Positions 3,644 through 25,029 of a stretch of 45,326 nt of DNA are shown one piece after another. Location of the stretch: the IMG/VR virus record IMGVR_UViG_3300021121_000005, positions 1 through 45,326 of that record, one strand, 5' to 3'. The notes beneath the pieces are model-generated. The model was not told the DNA's origin and did no database searches. It saw only the letters and a list, made by a program, of their open reading frames with translations. The position numbers and the translations under genes are program-made. Within the stretch, counting starts at the first letter, position 1. The number at the start of each line of letters is the position of its first letter. The stretch comes from a virus (lineage: Duplodnaviria > Caudoviricetes).

Positions 3644-4098
3644 GTTAATCCCCAAAGAGTTCCAATAGTTTGCATAAAAGCTAATGCTTGTCTGCCATAA
3701 GGATCTTTAATTGCTTGTAAATCTAATAATTGTAGATTTTGTAATCCTTTGCCTATTGTCAATGTTTCACTGGTGGAAACATCGCTTGCAGAGCTTATTA
3801 CTCCAGCTACAAAATTATTCATGCCATAGGCTTGTCTTGCATCAGCAAAAAATGTTTGACCTGCATAATCTTGTTGCCACTGTATTAATTGACTACCACC
3901 CCAGTTATACACAGTTAAGGTATAAATATCAGGAACAGTATTAGCAAAATCTTTAGGAACAATGTCCAATGCAATTTGAAAAGCATAGGCATATCCTTGA
4001 TCTGTAGGACTTATGACTACAGAATTCAATCCCATTACAGCTTGTGACCAAGCTACAAAACCTGCTAATGTTGGTGGAGAAGTAATGGGATCACTCAT
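3640..4098 (-). CDS. Putative head-tail adaptor (DUF4054-like)
   Basis: GVISSASDVSTS and DPYGRQALAF motifs typical of this adaptor type; follows the capsid genes. Confidence 0.6.
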   Translation of the reverse strand: MSDPITSPPTLAGFVAWSQAVMGLNSVVISPTDQGYAYAFQIALDIVPKDFANTVPDIYTLTVYNWGGSQLIQWQQDYAGQTFFADARQAYGMNNFVAGVISSASDVSTSETLTIGKGLQNLQLLDLQAIKDPYGRQALAFMQTIGTLWGLT

Positions 4099-9272: not shown

Positions 9273-10070
9273 CTACTTAGTTTTTATTGATTGTAATGCC
9301 AATTCCCCTTTTTTTGTCAAAATATTTTTGCATTGTTTTAAATTGTATAAATACACATAATTGCACCTACAATACACTTCTTCACCGGGTTGCGTAATCT
9401 GATCAGTATAACCATTAGGATGAGTTAAATAACCTTCCTTATCAGCCCAAGATCCACGAATAACATAGATTTTTTCATCTCTCTCTTTGTGATCTTTACG
9501 ATAATCATAATTAATTTGTTTCCAGTGGCTATGCCATTTCCCAGCAATAGCTCCATTGTCTACTGCAACTATGTCATTGATATTAGATATTAATTTATGA
9601 GTTTGATCAATAATTACCCTTCTTTGTTCAAACCCTATTTTCCCTAAAGATTTACGAATATCCTTTTTTTGCTGTACACGATCTACAACTTTTGATCCAC
9701 CAGCAGGAATAGATGTTGCCCATCCTTCAAATCTACGCAAAACTGTATTGACTGCTTCTTCACGATTTAATTTAATTAAATTCGCTGATGTGACAATTCT
9801 ACGATCTAGTTCAGCTTGTAGTTTAGGTTTTAGCTTATCAACATCAAATTTACTGATGTTGCCTTTTACTAATGATCCTTTGGTGACTAATCTATAAAAA
9901 GCTGATCTAAGAGCTTTTTCTAATTCTTGCTGTATTTGAGATTCAGGGATAAGTTCAGCTATTGCTGATTTGTAAATTCTATCCATCCACATCCTGATTC
10001 GTTCTTCAGAATCATAACCATTTTCTATGATGTCATTAACAGCTTCAGTTAGGATTTCAAAAAATGTCAT
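9273..10070 (-). CDS. Head morphogenesis protein (MuF / SPP1 gp7-like)
   Basis: DQTHKL, W..H..R..H and PGEEVYCRC motifs. Confidence 0.8.
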   Translation of the reverse strand: MTFFEILTEAVNDIIENGYDSEERIRMWMDRIYKSAIAELIPESQIQQELEKALRSAFYRLVTKGSLVKGNISKFDVDKLKPKLQAELDRRIVTSANLIKLNREEAVNTVLRRFEGWATSIPAGGSKVVDRVQQKKDIRKSLGKIGFEQRRVIIDQTHKLISNINDIVAVDNGAIAGKWHSHWKQINYDYRKDHKERDEKIYVIRGSWADKEGYLTHPNGYTDQITQPGEEVYCRCNYVYLYNLKQCKNILTKKGELALQSIKTK

Positions 10071-10270
10071 TGTTTAATCTTTATAAGAAATAATTCCCAA
10101 GCACTTGGATGCATACGAGCTTTCCCATTTTCATAATTACTCCATCTTGCTTGTGTAGTATATATCAAACTGGATGCTTCAGATTGGCTTAATTTTCCCC
10201 TAGCAGAAATAATTTCTATAGGAGAAGGGACATACCCTTGTATGCCCCTTGATCTTTGTTTAATAACCAT
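10067..10270 (-). CDS. Small XRE-like HTH regulator
   Basis: LSQSEASSLIYTTQARWSNYENGKARM helix-turn-helix pattern. Confidence 0.75.
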   Translation of the reverse strand: MVIKQRSRGIQGYVPSPIEIISARGKLSQSEASSLIYTTQARWSNYENGKARMHPSAWELFLIKIKQ

Positions 10271-10483: not shown

Positions 10484-10542
10484 TCCTTTCGTGTTAATCA
10501 AGACTACATCTTTATATTAATGCTTATTAAGCATAGTGTCAA
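10484..10542 (-). promoter_or_regulatory. Sigma70-type promoter with palindromic operator and CACGAAAGGA box
   Basis: TTGACA-17 nt-TAATAT; spacer contains ATGCTTAATAAGCAT; followed by TGTAGT and CACGAAAGGA. Confidence 0.7.
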
Positions 10543-11060
10543 GCAATTTGTTGCTTTTTTTTCATTAAATTTAAAAATATTTCTATTAAATAAGGATTGT
10601 CAATATTGGCTGAATTAAATACAGCTTGAGCAAATTCAAAATACTTTAGTTTTTTTTCTATGCTCCAGTTGGGTGGACTATCCAATACATCCCTGATATT
10701 GCAAATCTTATCAGCTACTTTGATTAGTTTTCCAGCATAGGAAATACTTTTTACCTTTTGAATTTGTGCCAATTTTCTATCTTCACCATCCAAGCCTACT
10801 GGATCAGTTACATCATCTACGATTTGAGCAATGCAATCATTAAACATATTGCCAATATCTGAAATGCTGATAGCACAATCTTCTACAACATCGTGCAATA
10901 GTGCAGAGCACAAAATATCTTCATCGTGTATACCAGCTTCAAACAATAGTTTAGCAACTGCTATTGGGTGATTAATATATGGAGTTGCATTTGCATCAAG
11001 TCTTTTTTGATCTCGATGCAAAGTGCTTGCCAGTGATATTGCATTAATTAAATTTTTCAA
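10539..11060 (-). CDS. HD-domain small alarmone hydrolase (Mesh1/Aph1-like)
   Basis: HRDQKR..PYINHP, LLHDVVED and KVADKICN motifs. Confidence 0.88.
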   Translation of the reverse strand: MKNLINAISLASTLHRDQKRLDANATPYINHPIAVAKLLFEAGIHDEDILCSALLHDVVEDCAISISDIGNMFNDCIAQIVDDVTDPVGLDGEDRKLAQIQKVKSISYAGKLIKVADKICNIRDVLDSPPNWSIEKKLKYFEFAQAVFNSANIDNPYLIEIFLNLMKKKQQIA

Positions 11061-11089
11061 TTTTTTTTCTTTCGCTTTCTCACAATATC

Positions 11090-11118
11090 ATAGTATCATG
11101 CTTAATAGGTATTTGCAA
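11090..11118 (-). promoter_or_regulatory. Promoter of the HD hydrolase gene with an operator in the spacer
   Basis: TTGCAA-17 nt-TACTAT; ATGCTTAATAGGTAT at 11098-11112. Confidence 0.6.
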
Positions 11119-11163: not shown

Positions 11164-11223
11164 TTTACATTTATGCTTAATAGGTATATTATAAAAATGT
11201 AGTCTTAATTAACCACGAAAGGA
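11164..11223 (+). promoter_or_regulatory. Promoter with operator and CACGAAAGGA box
   Basis: TTTACA-17 nt-TATTAT; ATGCTTAATAGGTAT at 11173-11187; TGTAGT; CACGAAAGGA at 11214-11223. Confidence 0.7.
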
Positions 11224-11230
11224 AATTAAA

Positions 11231-11407
11231 ATGCAGATCGCCCAAGCAATTGAAATTATTCAGGAATATCAAGTACAAAATGCTTTGCCTTTTATTTTGG
11301 AAGCTGTAATTGATATGCAAGACAATCGTGAAGATTTAAATCCACAACAACTTATTGCTTTGAATGTTTTTGTAGCAATGGGACAACAAATGTTTGCACC
11401 AGCCTAA
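11231..11407 (+). CDS. Small hypothetical protein (58 aa, not in ORF track)
   Basis: MQIAQAIEIIQEYQVQNALPFILEAVIDMQDN...; strong RBS and upstream promoter. Confidence 0.7.
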   Translation: MQIAQAIEIIQEYQVQNALPFILEAVIDMQDNREDLNPQQLIALNVFVAMGQQMFAPA

Positions 11408-12005: not shown

Positions 12006-12058
12006 CATTATGCTTAATTAGTATATACTGTAATTGTAGTAATTATTTCACGAAAGGA
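12002..12058 (+). promoter_or_regulatory. Promoter with operator and CACGAAAGGA box
   Basis: TTGACA-16 nt-TATACT; ATGCTTAATTAGTAT at 12010-12024; TGTAGT; CACGAAAGGA at 12049-12058. Confidence 0.72.
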
Positions 12059-12064
12059 ATAAAA

Positions 12065-12211
12065 ATGGAATTCGAAATTTATGGGTATTTGGTTCGGAAT
12101 TTAGAGCAAGCTAGAGCTGTTCTTGCTTTGGCTGTCGCAAAAGGGCAGTTAGGTAGACAAGCTGTGGCTTTGCAAGTGATCCAACAAATTCAACAACAAG
12201 GGGGTGTGTGA
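12065..12211 (+). CDS. Small hypothetical protein
   Basis: Start moved to the ATG at 12065 (MEFEIYGY...) behind the RBS box. Confidence 0.6.
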   Translation: MEFEIYGYLVRNLEQARAVLALAVAKGQLGRQAVALQVIQQIQQQGGV

Positions 12212-21562: not shown

Positions 21563-21826
21563 TTAAATTCCATTCAAAAGACAAATTATTTGTATAAATT
21601 TTGATAATTCATTTCTATCAAGCCATGTTTTTTGTTCAACTTGGCGAATCCAAAATATTGCTTTTTTGCCATCCTTAAGATCAATTAATGGAATCTCATA
21701 GCTATAACCACCATGAGTTAATATTAAAACATCATCATCAATATAAAATTGATTAACATTAAATTCATTTAAAATTTTTGTATCAAAATCAATTGCTTTA
21801 ATAATATTGAACATATCATTCTCCAA
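21563..21826 (-). CDS. Hypothetical protein
   Basis: 87 aa; YSYEIPL..W..Q...KTW pattern. Confidence 0.55.
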   Translation of the reverse strand: MENDMFNIIKAIDFDTKILNEFNVNQFYIDDDVLILTHGGYSYEIPLIDLKDGKKAIFWIRQVEQKTWLDRNELSKFIQIICLLNGI

Positions 21827-22016
21827 ACAAGTCAGGTCTAAGCATTTCTTTTGTTAATCTTCCTTCAGATAAAACGCTAATTTTTTTCAAATGTTTAATA
21901 GGTATTTGTTTCCTAGAAAGCCAGTTATAAACTGCTGTATTTCTAACACCTAATAACTTTGAAAGCTCATCTAAAGTACCAAATTCAACTTGCAAATGTT
22001 TTTTAATTTCTTCCAT
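21816..22016 (-). CDS. Cro/YdaS-like HTH regulator
   Basis: LSKLLGVRNTAVYNW..IP..LRPDLF; AGGAGG RBS. Confidence 0.8.
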   Translation of the reverse strand: MEEIKKHLQVEFGTLDELSKLLGVRNTAVYNWLSRKQIPIKHLKKISVLSEGRLTKEMLRPDLFGE

Positions 22017-22407: not shown

Positions 22408-22457
22408 TGATATAATAGTTTTAAGTAGTAATTTTACTACCCTATTTCACGAAAGGA
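22408..22457 (+). promoter_or_regulatory. Early promoter (extended -10) and CACGAAAGGA box
   Basis: TGATATAAT at 22408-22416; GTAGTAA/TTACTAC inverted repeat; box at 22448-22457. Confidence 0.7.
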
Positions 22458-22463
22458 ATAAAA

Positions 22464-22784
22464 ATGAGTTATGACAGTTGGTTGCAAGAGCCATATTACC
22501 CTAAAGAAGATCCGTTGATGGATGAAAAAATTTCAGATCGTGCTAGAGAATATATGACTGAAGGATCATTATATGATCCATTCAATTGGGAAAATTTCAG
22601 TAATGTTATTTTTGATGCTCCACAAAAAGATGTTGATTGCATTTTAGATATTGCAAAAAATAAAGAGTTTCTTGCGTTAGGAAGATACATTTATTTGATG
22701 GTAATGGATGAAATGGAAAAACAAGCTGAAAAGCAAGCATCAGAAGATTTTAATGCTGGTTTAATAGGTAATGACTACGAATAA
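22464..22784 (+). CDS. Hypothetical acidic protein
   Basis: 106 aa, MSYDSWLQEPY, strong RBS. Confidence 0.7.
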   Translation: MSYDSWLQEPYYPKEDPLMDEKISDRAREYMTEGSLYDPFNWENFSNVIFDAPQKDVDCILDIAKNKEFLALGRYIYLMVMDEMEKQAEKQASEDFNAGLIGNDYE

Positions 22785-22801
22785 TCACGAAAGGATTAAA
22801 A

Positions 22802-23347
22802 ATGAACTATAAAGAATTAAGAACAATTAATGTTAATGAACATACTGAAAAAAAAGGTAATTTAACTTATCTTAGTTGGACATGGGCTGTTGATACCTTA
22901 TTACAACAAGATCCTATGGCTGTTTGGGAATTTTTAGAACCTAAAATTTTTAATGAAACCATGATGGTTTTTTGCAAAGTTACAGCTTTTGGGAAAACTA
23001 TGACGATGCACTTACCAGTTATGGACAATCGAAATCAAGCTATTAAAAATCCTGATGCTAGAAAAATTAGTGATGCTATGATGCGTTGCCTTGCTAAATG
23101 TATTGCTACTTATGGAATAGGTTTGTATGTGTATGCCGGTGAAGATTTGCCAGCAGAAGAAGATATATCAGAAGAAGATTTAGCTATTTATGATTCAGAT
23201 ATTCAAAATGCTGAAACTGTAGATCAGCTTGTAAATATTTTTAAATCAGCATCCACTAAATATCCAAGAAATACAGAATTCTTAACTCAAATTCGTACAG
23301 CTTGTGGAATTCGTAAAGCTGAAATAATGAAAGGAACAAAAGAATGA
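22802..23347 (+). CDS. Single-strand annealing protein (Sak3/DUF1071-like)
   Basis: LTYLSWTWA, LPVMDNRN, MRCLAKCIA..GIGLYVYAGEDLP. Confidence 0.85.
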   Translation: MNYKELRTINVNEHTEKKGNLTYLSWTWAVDTLLQQDPMAVWEFLEPKIFNETMMVFCKVTAFGKTMTMHLPVMDNRNQAIKNPDARKISDAMMRCLAKCIATYGIGLYVYAGEDLPAEEDISEEDLAIYDSDIQNAETVDQLVNIFKSASTKYPRNTEFLTQIRTACGIRKAEIMKGTKE

Positions 23348-23541
23348 AAAGAGAAAAAGTAAGAATAACCATTAATACTGAACCCATAAGCTATGAATGT
23401 TATTTAGATGAAGTTTGGGTAAATGAAGAATTTCCTGTAGGTAATGGAATACCAGCAGGTGCAAGATCTTTAGCTTATCCACACCATCAAATGAGAATCA
23501 TAGTATCTCCAATTAAAGAAAATGAGGAAAAAAATGATTGA
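23344..23541 (+). CDS. Small hypothetical protein
   Basis: ATGA overlap with the upstream gene; 65 aa. Confidence 0.5.
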   Translation: MKREKVRITINTEPISYECYLDEVWVNEEFPVGNGIPAGARSLAYPHHQMRIIVSPIKENEEKND

Positions 23542-24160
23542 ACAAGGAACATTAGAATGGCATGAACTTCGTAAAGGTAAAGTTACTGCCAGCAGGGTTG
23601 CTGATGTAATGGCTAAGACCAAAACTGGAGTTTCAGCTAGTCGAGGTAATTATCTAATAGAACTAGCTCTCCAGCGAATGACAGGCATCATAGAAGAAGG
23701 TTTTAAGAATGATGCTATGGCACATGGTTCACACTATGAAGATGAAGCTAGATTGGCTTATGAGGTTTCATGTGAAACATTTGTAGAGCAGATTGCTTTT
23801 GTAGATCATCCTACAATACCTTGGTTTGGTTGCTCTCCTGATGGCTTAGTTGGTGAAGGATTGATTGAAATAAAGTGTCCTTATCAATCAGCAGTTCATT
23901 GGAGCTATCTAAAAGAAGGCAAACCACCAGCTAAGTATATTCCACAAATGATGGCACAAATGTCTTGCACTGGTGCTAAATGGGTTGATTTTATTTCCTA
24001 TGATCCAAGAATGAGTGATAACACTAAATTATTTATAGTTCGCTTAAATCGTGATGAAAATTATATTGAGCAAATGGAAACTGAAATTAAGAAATTTTTA
24101 GAAGAAGTAGAAAATGAAGTACAACTTATGAAGGAATTTAAAAATGGCATCAGTAAATAA
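23522..24160 (+). CDS. YqaJ/lambda-type exonuclease (true start probably at MIEQ)
   Basis: QGTLEWHELR..TASR, CSPDG, EIKCP and Q...QM motifs. Confidence 0.9.
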   Translation: MRKKMIEQGTLEWHELRKGKVTASRVADVMAKTKTGVSASRGNYLIELALQRMTGIIEEGFKNDAMAHGSHYEDEARLAYEVSCETFVEQIAFVDHPTIPWFGCSPDGLVGEGLIEIKCPYQSAVHWSYLKEGKPPAKYIPQMMAQMSCTGAKWVDFISYDPRMSDNTKLFIVRLNRDENYIEQMETEIKKFLEEVENEVQLMKEFKNGISK

Positions 24161-24572
24161 ATGGATTGGTATTGGTAATTTAACGAAAGAACCTGATCAG
24201 AAAGCATTTTCGGATGGTTCTTTTGTAACCAATATCACAATTGCTTGTAATGAAAAATACAAAGATAAATCAGGTGAGCAAAAAGAAGTGGTGGAATATG
24301 TTAATATTTCTTTTTTTGGTAAATTGGCTGAAATTGCTAGTAAGTATTTAGCAAAAGGTAATCCAGTATATGTTGAAGGTAAATTAAAAACTGATAAATA
24401 TACTGATAAAAATGGAATTGAAAAATACTCTACCAAAATAATTGCTAATTCATTACAATTACTGGGAAATAAATCTGAAGCTAAACCAAAAGATACAGAA
24501 GATCCATTTGCAAGTTTAGTTCCTAAATCAGTAGGTGGTTTATCAGAAATGGATGATGACCCACCTTTCTAA
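24144..24572 (+). CDS. ssb: Single-stranded DNA-binding protein
   Basis: SVNK..IGNL, YLAKG..VYVEGKL, acidic DDDPPF tail. Confidence 0.93.
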   Translation: MASVNKWIGIGNLTKEPDQKAFSDGSFVTNITIACNEKYKDKSGEQKEVVEYVNISFFGKLAEIASKYLAKGNPVYVEGKLKTDKYTDKNGIEKYSTKIIANSLQLLGNKSEAKPKDTEDPFASLVPKSVGGLSEMDDDPPF

Positions 24573-24579
24573 CCAGCTA

Positions 24580-24666
24580 TGGGGTGATGTAAGTCCTGAG
24601 CAAGACTATAAACCTACTTTCTGCTTTTTCACACAACCAAGCAGATCCTTTCGTGGCATCACCCCA
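24580..24666 (+). ncRNA. Putative three-stem antisense RNA exposing an anti-RBS seed
   Basis: P1 24580-24590/24656-24666 (11 bp); P2 AGUC/GACU; P3 UCUGCUU/AAGCAGA; unpaired UCCUUUCGUG (24646-24655) is the reverse complement of the repeated CACGAAAGGA box. Confidence 0.65.
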
Positions 24667-24759
24667 CCCCATAAAAACAACAAACTATGATAAATAATTA
24701 TTGCTAATATCATAGTTCTATGTAATACTATGATTGTAGTAATTAATGAAAGGTTAGTT

Positions 24760-24912: not shown

Positions 24913-24930
24913 TTTCACGAAAGGAAAAAA

Positions 24931-25029
24931 ATGTTATTAGATCACTTAGATATACCAGTATGGGTTGAATACCTAGTTGCAACTTTATTTGGCATTTTGT
25001 TTGCAGTAATGTTTGCTTTGCCAATATGA
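24931..25029 (+). CDS. 32-aa single-TM membrane peptide (not in ORF track)
   Basis: MLLDHLDIPVWVEYLVATLFGILFAVMFALPI; CACGAAAGGA box at 24916-24925; ATGA coupling to the next gene. Confidence 0.6.
   Translation: MLLDHLDIPVWVEYLVATLFGILFAVMFALPI

Follow-up and report, generated by a model that had tools for sequence, protein, structure and literature searches.

A predicted tRNA-ended phage RNA with an open strand complementary to tags at early-gene ribosome-binding sites: a candidate regulon with a readdressable code

The P4 CI RNA and the IsrK RNA of Gifsy-1 are phage small RNAs that are processed from a longer transcript and act on leader sequences. In phage T4, RegA and RegB bring about the post-transcriptional shut-off of many early mRNAs at translation-initiation regions. 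RNase P releases the C4 RNA from a longer precursor by cutting at the foot of the P1 helix; the RNA covers a ribosome-binding site (RBS) and serves immunity, with a 4-nt change separating phage P1 from P7 (PMC5320573). Cluster K mycobacteriophages carry Start Associated Sequences (SAS), an asymmetric repeat that covers the Shine-Dalgarno sequence (SD) a few nt ahead of the start in non-structural genes; four genomes also have a single inverted copy. The study leaves open whether RNA or protein binds the repeat, and describes no partner RNA (PMC3203893).

Here we analyze a 45,326-nucleotide stretch of phage DNA (the window), a record that is 92% complete and encodes a tail sheath, portal, terminase, helicase, replication initiator, and a sak-yqaJ-ssb block. 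A sequence-only reading had proposed that a structured RNA behind ssb presents an antisense seed to the RBSs of six genes. We find that the fold is conserved, that seed and tag are exactly complementary, and that the two change in matched fashion among relatives. This is a real, uncatalogued family of phage RNAs, and there is strong comparative evidence that it pairs with an RBS tag of multiple genes. The family is absent from Rfam 15. A literature search found no description of this RNA, and six text supplements of PMC10690425 do not contain the seed; an earlier prediction without a name is possible. The RNA and its parts are as follows.

24581-24668, plus strand: predicted mature RNA of 88 nt with a GG start and CC-ACC end (fold, family covariation, ends common with P1 C4; mature ends predicted)
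24581-24590, plus strand: 5' strand of P1, pairing with 24656-24665 (end-anchored pairing in 28 RNAs)
24592-24607, plus strand: P2, a 4-bp hairpin (27 of 28 RNAs have it, with changes in both arms)
24608-24619, plus strand: A-rich unpaired linker, family consensus AAAAWCT (alignments; partly ascertained, as the word was in search patterns)
24620-24645, plus strand: P3 hairpin, its loop starting TTTCAC like the P3 loop (b') of P1 C4 (fold, family comparison)
24646-24655, plus strand: seed TCCTTTCGTG, 7 nt identical to a betaproteobacterial 16S rRNA tail plus 3 nt of specificity (site counts, co-variation)
24666-24668, plus strand: 3' ACC after the helix, a tRNA/C4-like end and candidate RNase P substrate (28 of 28 RNAs)

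The three-way junction originally described for 24580-24666 is recovered on folding (-27.3 kcal/mol, z -3.55), with one of 200 shuffles as good. Its closing stem had been given as 11 bp, but the helix conserved in the family has 10 bp (24581-24590/24656-24665) and is followed by ACC (24666-24668). The outer pair T24580-A24666 is not kept, the base before the helix being T in 23 and C in 5 of 28 RNAs. The objection that the seed is buried in the real fold does not hold in the window, where the predicted ensemble gives it a mean unpaired probability of 0.86, the most open of the family (range 0.34-0.86 over 28 RNAs). In four of the 28 ensembles the seed is less than half open (0.34-0.43 unpaired), i.e., partly paired. 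ARAGORN finds no tRNA or tmRNA gene in the window and neither does Rfam, which returns no match there at gathering level or at E values up to 10.

The first homologs came from 40 SSB relatives and a seed pattern, and four further patterns widened the set; four of the scans in this work covered 26, 24, 6, and 47 of the 64 parts of their collections. An HMM run over 517 loci (5.2 Mb) separates members, at E <1e-5, from the rest. Pattern matches with a closing helix below 8 bp, tRNA-like matches, and duplicates were dropped before counting, as were matches with a helix below 7 bp in the last, ends-only search (81 of 96). The relatives yield 28 distinct RNAs, plus four found later. Pairs were counted from the RNA ends, and a family covariance model, which had only four pairs because its ends were misaligned, was not used. 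Counted this way, P1 is paired at 279 of 280 positions over the 28 RNAs, with 276 Watson-Crick pairs and 3 G-U. The helix has 10 bp in 25 RNAs and shows compensatory changes: every position from 5 to 10 occurs with two to five pair types. P3 varies freely, and the mean fold z of the family is -3.4. All 28 RNAs end in ACC; this word was in most patterns, yet RNAs found by protein or seed alone carry it too. In the L569 RNA, the ends read GGAG...CTCC-ACC. The seed is conserved while all helices change. An Rfam scan of 12 short and 10 long member loci gave no C4 match. An origin from tRNA-Leu was rejected: seed-free patterns caught tRNA-Leu-like genes, but the family HMM does not match those tRNAs, and the overlap is one of patterns only.

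Several elements resemble the family or take its place. Relatives with 96% identical SSB have an inserted ORF and a different RNA allele with the seed unchanged, which suggests cassette exchange; the ORF (L005 10478-10990, also in L002-L004 and L006) is Cys-rich, 145 aa long, and situated between ssb and the RNA, with only a sub-cut-off Pfam match. Other predicted folds replace the RNA downstream of ssb in L019-L025 and L012-L016. Two of these loci, L021 and L025, carry CATTGAAAGG tags, with no partner RNA found in these records (17% and 40% complete). A sister form of about 44 nt occurs in six of 80 loci chosen by YqaJ (L564, L567, L568, L571 at about 11020-11064, L573, and L576); it consists of a 6-bp helix, P3 (a GCAAT hairpin with a compensatory change), the seed CCCTTTCAAG, and ACC, and a matching tag is at the yqaJ start. 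Behind a gene whose end resembles that of ssb, L614 has at 3718-3796 an element with GG...CC-ACC ends, two hairpins, and a 12-bp helix, and 5 kb of sequence there holds no matching tag. Near the L089 RNA, L245 has a sub-threshold pistol ribozyme match at 374-463 on the minus strand (30.4 of 34.5 bits).

The tag CACGAAAGGA occurs seven times over both strands of the window, against 0.01 expected, and none of 100 shuffles reaches seven. As had been proposed, six copies lie at RBSs, 5-7 nt before the ATG of ORFs of 32-181 aa and with A-rich spacers; the seventh is the antisense copy in the fold junction after ssb. Two sites, 11213 and 22786, extend to 11 matches, in keeping with the two extended targets first described. 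Two single-mismatch sites lie elsewhere in the window, neither at a start.

10484-10493, minus strand: tag at the RBS of a 65-aa ORF (10477-10280), which opens a transcript shared with a weak HTH gene (exact tag match)
11214-11223, plus strand: tag at the RBS of a 58-aa ORF (11231-11407; exact tag match)
12049-12058, plus strand: tag at the RBS of a 48-aa ORF (12065-12211; exact tag match)
22448-22457, plus strand: tag at the RBS of a 106-aa ORF (22464-22784), first gene of the RNA's own operon (gene family tagged in 14 loci)
22786-22795, plus strand: tag at the RBS of sak (22802-23347, PF06378; exact tag match, Pfam match)
24916-24925, plus strand: tag at the RBS of a 32-aa ORF (24931-25029; exact tag match)

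Across 71 window starts, predicted seed pairing sets the six tagged ones (-14.8 to -15.4 kcal/mol) above the next best, at 23344 (-11.6), 12904 (-9.7), and 24760 (-9.6), and no virion gene among these starts has a tag. The targets are spread over several transcripts and both strands. Features of the surrounding genome that bear on control are these.

22464-24572, plus strand: operon carrying the RNA, comprising ORF106, sak, ORF65, yqaJ exonuclease, and ssb, with the RNA after the ssb stop (gene calls, Pfam)
10067-10270, minus strand: weak HTH protein, candidate binder of the palindrome (PF13560 at 21.6 bits, below the cut-off of 27)
10520-10534, minus strand: palindrome ATGCTTA-A-TAAGCAT in a promoter-like stretch, a candidate operator (variants at 11098, 11173, and 12010; function predicted)

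The phage had been described as having no visible CI. This is so for S24-type repressors (none in four records) but not for HTH proteins generally, since the window has a Cro/YdaS-like HTH protein (21816-22016) besides the weak one. The palindrome is upstream of three of the six window tags and recurs in promoter-like spacers of early genes in L166, L372, and L426; together with the two HTH genes, it suggests a protein layer of control too. An HD-domain protein (PF13328, 58.6 bits; window 10539-11060, minus strand) adjoins the early promoter cluster.

Co-variation of seed and RBS boxes in relatives had been singled out as the decisive test, and we observe it in four seed classes as well as in a sample chosen without reference to the RNA. 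Patterns lacking the seed gave three seeds in addition to that of the window (class A): CCTTTTCGTG (class B), CCTTTCAAG (class C), and CCTTTGCGTG (class D). We counted 8-9-base tag cores at RBS position in 36 loci. Class A loci (306 kb) have 91 A tags and 2 B tags but no C or D; class B loci (80 kb) have 21 B and 4 A, likewise with no C or D; class C loci (32 kb) have 9 C and none of the others; and the class D locus (8 kb) has a single D tag and none of the others. Background, in 2.6 Mb of non-member loci, is 13 A, 5 B, 26 C, and 0 D, and tag density is about 60-fold higher in RNA-bearing loci. All four A tags seen in class B loci belong to a single gene carried by near-identical genomes. Independent seed changes number about four, with seven of eight class B loci sharing one RNA. 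Class A is common to very different phages, with GC of 0.31-0.45.

Individual genes follow the same rule, in that orthologs swap their tag with the seed. The DUF932 gene has 6 A and 3 B tags, the first gene of the recombination operon has 13 A and 1 B, one small ORF is tagged B and C in different loci, and the replication initiator likewise changes its tag with the seed. When each seed was scored without regard to class against all 154 AAAGG-type RBSs of 16 loci, cognate combinations came out 1.1 kcal/mol better, a difference that 0 of 20000 permutations reached in a test that treats class A loci as independent despite their relatedness. Among 80 loci chosen by YqaJ alone, at least two A/B tags are found in 5/5 RNA loci versus 0/75 others; three of the five are near-copies of the window and two are new (L553, class B; L569, class A), and single class A tags occur in 8 of the 75 loci without the RNA. 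The ends-only pattern gave 96 distinct matches in newly fetched loci; six have a helix of at least 10 bp, and five of these are seed-tag pairs (two new), L614 being the exception. The class C tag is less specific, with two or three copies in L560, L587, L021, and L025, where the RNA was not found (all partial records). L061 has one exact 8-mer tag only, its other starts being bulged variants. At the other extreme, a record that is 77% complete carries 14 tags, every one of them at a start.

Tags keep a tight register: 86 of 98 are 6-8 nt from the ATG, and they always cover the SD. The 115 tagged ORFs, with a median length of 79 aa, comprise small early genes, annealing proteins, DUF932, and in some relatives the initiator; none of them matches the ssb, yqaJ, capsid, or Cro-like proteins of the window. 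A different start tag, AGAAAGGCA, occurs two to four times per locus in L528, L529, L542, L543, L548, and L551, with no inverted copy found in the DNA examined. In phage Venkman (L527, MT375522), TGTTTAAAC directly precedes the ATG at 2153, 2374, 2610, 3788, 4657, and 9017, i.e., at six of the 42 starts listed. A few bases upstream of tagged RBSs, seven loci have hammerhead-like three-helix cores (L017 near 6411, L067 near 5952, and, on the minus strand, L061, L063, L089, L333, and L388); Rfam makes no call for them at gathering level.

The inverted box might have been the minus-strand RBS of a real ORF. This we reject: an ATG ORF of at least 28 aa lies behind the box in 0 of 28 RNA copies and an ORF with any start in 3 of 28, and the spacer is 23% A versus 61% at true tags. 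A TTG, GTG, or ATG does follow the inverted box by 6-8 nt in 25 of 28, arising from CA in P3 loops, and ORF lengths there are unconserved. Predicted energy favors the reverse strand in 19 of 28 RNAs. The plus strand is supported because P1 then has 3 G-U versus 0 A-C pairs, and because of the ACC end and co-orientation: RNA and yqaJ point the same way in 19 of the 19 loci where yqaJ was found (25 tested).

For the P3 loop, pairing to the start codon is not significant (p 0.25, 16 loci), and a second target box has no cognate excess upstream (p 0.12) or downstream (p 0.38) in the 16 loci. A candidate second seed, TGTAGT, upstream of some tags was rejected as not significant. In L089 and L107, the P3 loop CCTTTCATT is a second anti-SD-like word that can pair 4-7 bp across the target AUG. 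Cofolding of the whole RNA with its targets gives -0.2 to -7.2 kcal/mol from a program that cannot model pairing within a junction.

As to the host, the closest cultured sak is that of Methylophilales phage Venkman (67%), in which we found neither the RNA nor the tag, and capsid matches of 45-53% are to phages of differing hosts. The Neisseria 16S tail reads GAUCACCUCCUUUCUA (PMC6288834), and seven seed bases equal that tail. An opposite-strand copy in G001 was rejected as an RNA, being coding sequence.

Co-variation in four classes, failure of the minus-strand RBS alternative, and an open seed in the window fold together support the antisense-regulon reading. Under it, the RNA (plus strand) would be transcribed together with the sak-yqaJ-ssb operon, behind ssb, and host RNase P is predicted to release a stable 88-base RNA, whose ends are compatible with such 5' maturation. 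The unpaired 10-base strand would pair in trans with tags over the SD and so block ribosome loading at six early genes. Because the seed copies the 16S tail for 6-7 bases, it would compete with the ribosome; the bases next to this 16S-like core may serve as a code particular to each lineage, by which ordinary sites are spared. Tags are present on the first two genes of the operon that carries the RNA and on many genes that open early transcripts, but not on ssb or the virion genes. This arrangement suggests a delayed negative feedback that would end early-gene translation once the RNA accumulates, and a loop that would be self-limiting, since its targets include the genes that open the operon carrying the RNA. 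Pairing in trans with the tags is very probable on the comparative data, and repression of translation through this pairing is probable. We place moderate confidence in the whole sequence of events, in which an RNase P-matured antisense RNA acts as a timer through delayed negative feedback on early genes. The first proposal had offered "a timer or a repressor substitute." A lytic timer fits better, as no integrase or S24 repressor was found in four records, two of them 92% complete; a repressor substitute is the weaker half, given this lack and the presence of HTH proteins.

That lack also bears on immunity, in which the RNA would persist in a carrier or infected cell and silence early genes in any incoming phage that carries the matching tag, the seed classes being immunity groups as in P1/P7. 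The role of C4 and the 4 nt that separate P1 from P7 (PMC5320573) offer a precedent, four seed classes do exist, and the tagged genes include those that open early transcripts and, in some relatives, the gene for the replication initiator. However, a scan of GTDB genomes for prophage copies gave six pattern matches, all without the closing helix, the RNA is at the end of a lytic recombination operon, and the span of class A over very different phages is a poor fit to diversifying immunity, which we consider unlikely. We give still less credence to an effect on message fate, in which pairing would shield 5' leaders from host nuclease or guide decay or termination, with a net effect that is stabilizing or polar. 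Many tags follow closely on promoter-like sites and are thus probably near 5' ends, and some come after hammerhead-like cores, but their fixed SD spacing puts them where a 10-bp duplex excludes the 30S subunit. A function as an RNase P external guide sequence seems at odds with the geometry and was rejected, as the ACC follows the RNA's own helix.

Two further readings strike us as very improbable. One takes the minus strand as the working RNA, a decoy showing the tag itself to a protein that binds tagged RBSs. The reverse strand folds as well or better in 19/28, and there is one weak minus-strand promoter match at 24726-24697 (six sites found versus 16 expected by chance), but G-U pairs occur in the plus orientation only, the C4-like ends, A-rich linker, and GCAA loops read on that strand, yqaJ is co-oriented throughout, and the protein would need a new specificity for each seed class. 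The other has the RNA mainly dampening host translation as a mimic of the 16S tail, with phage tags secondary. It would account for the Neisseria match and for CCTTT being kept in all classes (though CCTTT was part of a search pattern), but not for the way the varying seed bases, which lie beyond the rRNA-like core, track the phage's own tags. Least credible of all is that the tag is only a strong ribosome-binding consensus and its inverted copy an accident or relic. Where the host has a UCCUUUC tail, GAAAGGA is an ordinary extended SD, and both the window and phages lacking the RNA have weaker starts with GAAAGG; the roughly 60-fold enrichment, the conservation of the seed while helices change and its switching in step with tags, and the diagonal class table all contradict this.

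The antisense timer remains our preferred reading, and its broadest form is tentative, somewhat short of an even chance in our estimation: a phage-wide regulon with a readdressable code, in which a tRNA-ended RNA, combining an anti-SD mimic with a three-base lineage barcode, would silence up to 14 early genes as an RNA counterpart of T4 RegA/RegB, and in which the same design would explain mycobacteriophage SAS. The four natural seed-tag pairs amount to a ready compensatory experiment and possibly to orthogonal translation switches.

How does this RNA compare with the systems already described? P1 C4 (AF234172, folded for comparison) shares a length of about 77-88 nt, a three-way junction with a long closing helix, TAT before the GG start, and the CC-ACC end; its antisense a' element, like the seed here, occupies the junction strand that connects P3 to the closing helix, and the P3 loop starts TTTCAC in both C4 and the window RNA. 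A check against Rfam and C4, suggested at the outset, gave no RF01695 match (clan CL00128) in the member loci, nor at E 10 in the window or in five records; as controls, P1 C4 scores 68.8 bits with RF01695 (45-bit threshold), and the family HMM does not find C4. The two also differ in targeting. C4 uses two elements (a' and b') on sites flanking itself in one operon, its own, in a context of temperate immunity with an antirepressor, whereas here one strand faces the SD of 6-14 dispersed genes, the second element (b') is unsupported, and no temperate context was found. The RNA would thus work like C4, but because it has no Rfam match, no second pairing site, and no confinement to a single operon, we do not file it as a member; the family may be a distant relative.

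Like Cluster K genomes with SAS, the window has asymmetric tags over the SD (six), a single inverted copy, and none at virion genes, although sequence and host are unrelated and the tag differs from the 13-bp Cluster K consensus. In Anaya (L524 near 31871; JF704106 near 59870), the lone inverted SAS forms part of a hairpin loop in the gp96-gp97 intergenic region; the portions of Pixie and TM4 that were analyzed contain no inverted copy. The seed-tag system offers a mechanism for repeated start-associated phage motifs, for which the Anaya copy is a lead only. The GG...CC-ACC ends are those of a tRNA, but the T-arm and anticodon arm are absent. P4 CI and IsrK act on one operon, and no Rfam match to them was found here; T4 RegA/RegB are proteins, whereas here RNA base pairing would give the specificity. 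Described phage antisense RNAs of this build govern one operon; here, one RNA appears to address a genome-wide set of early genes through a tag that co-evolves with it.
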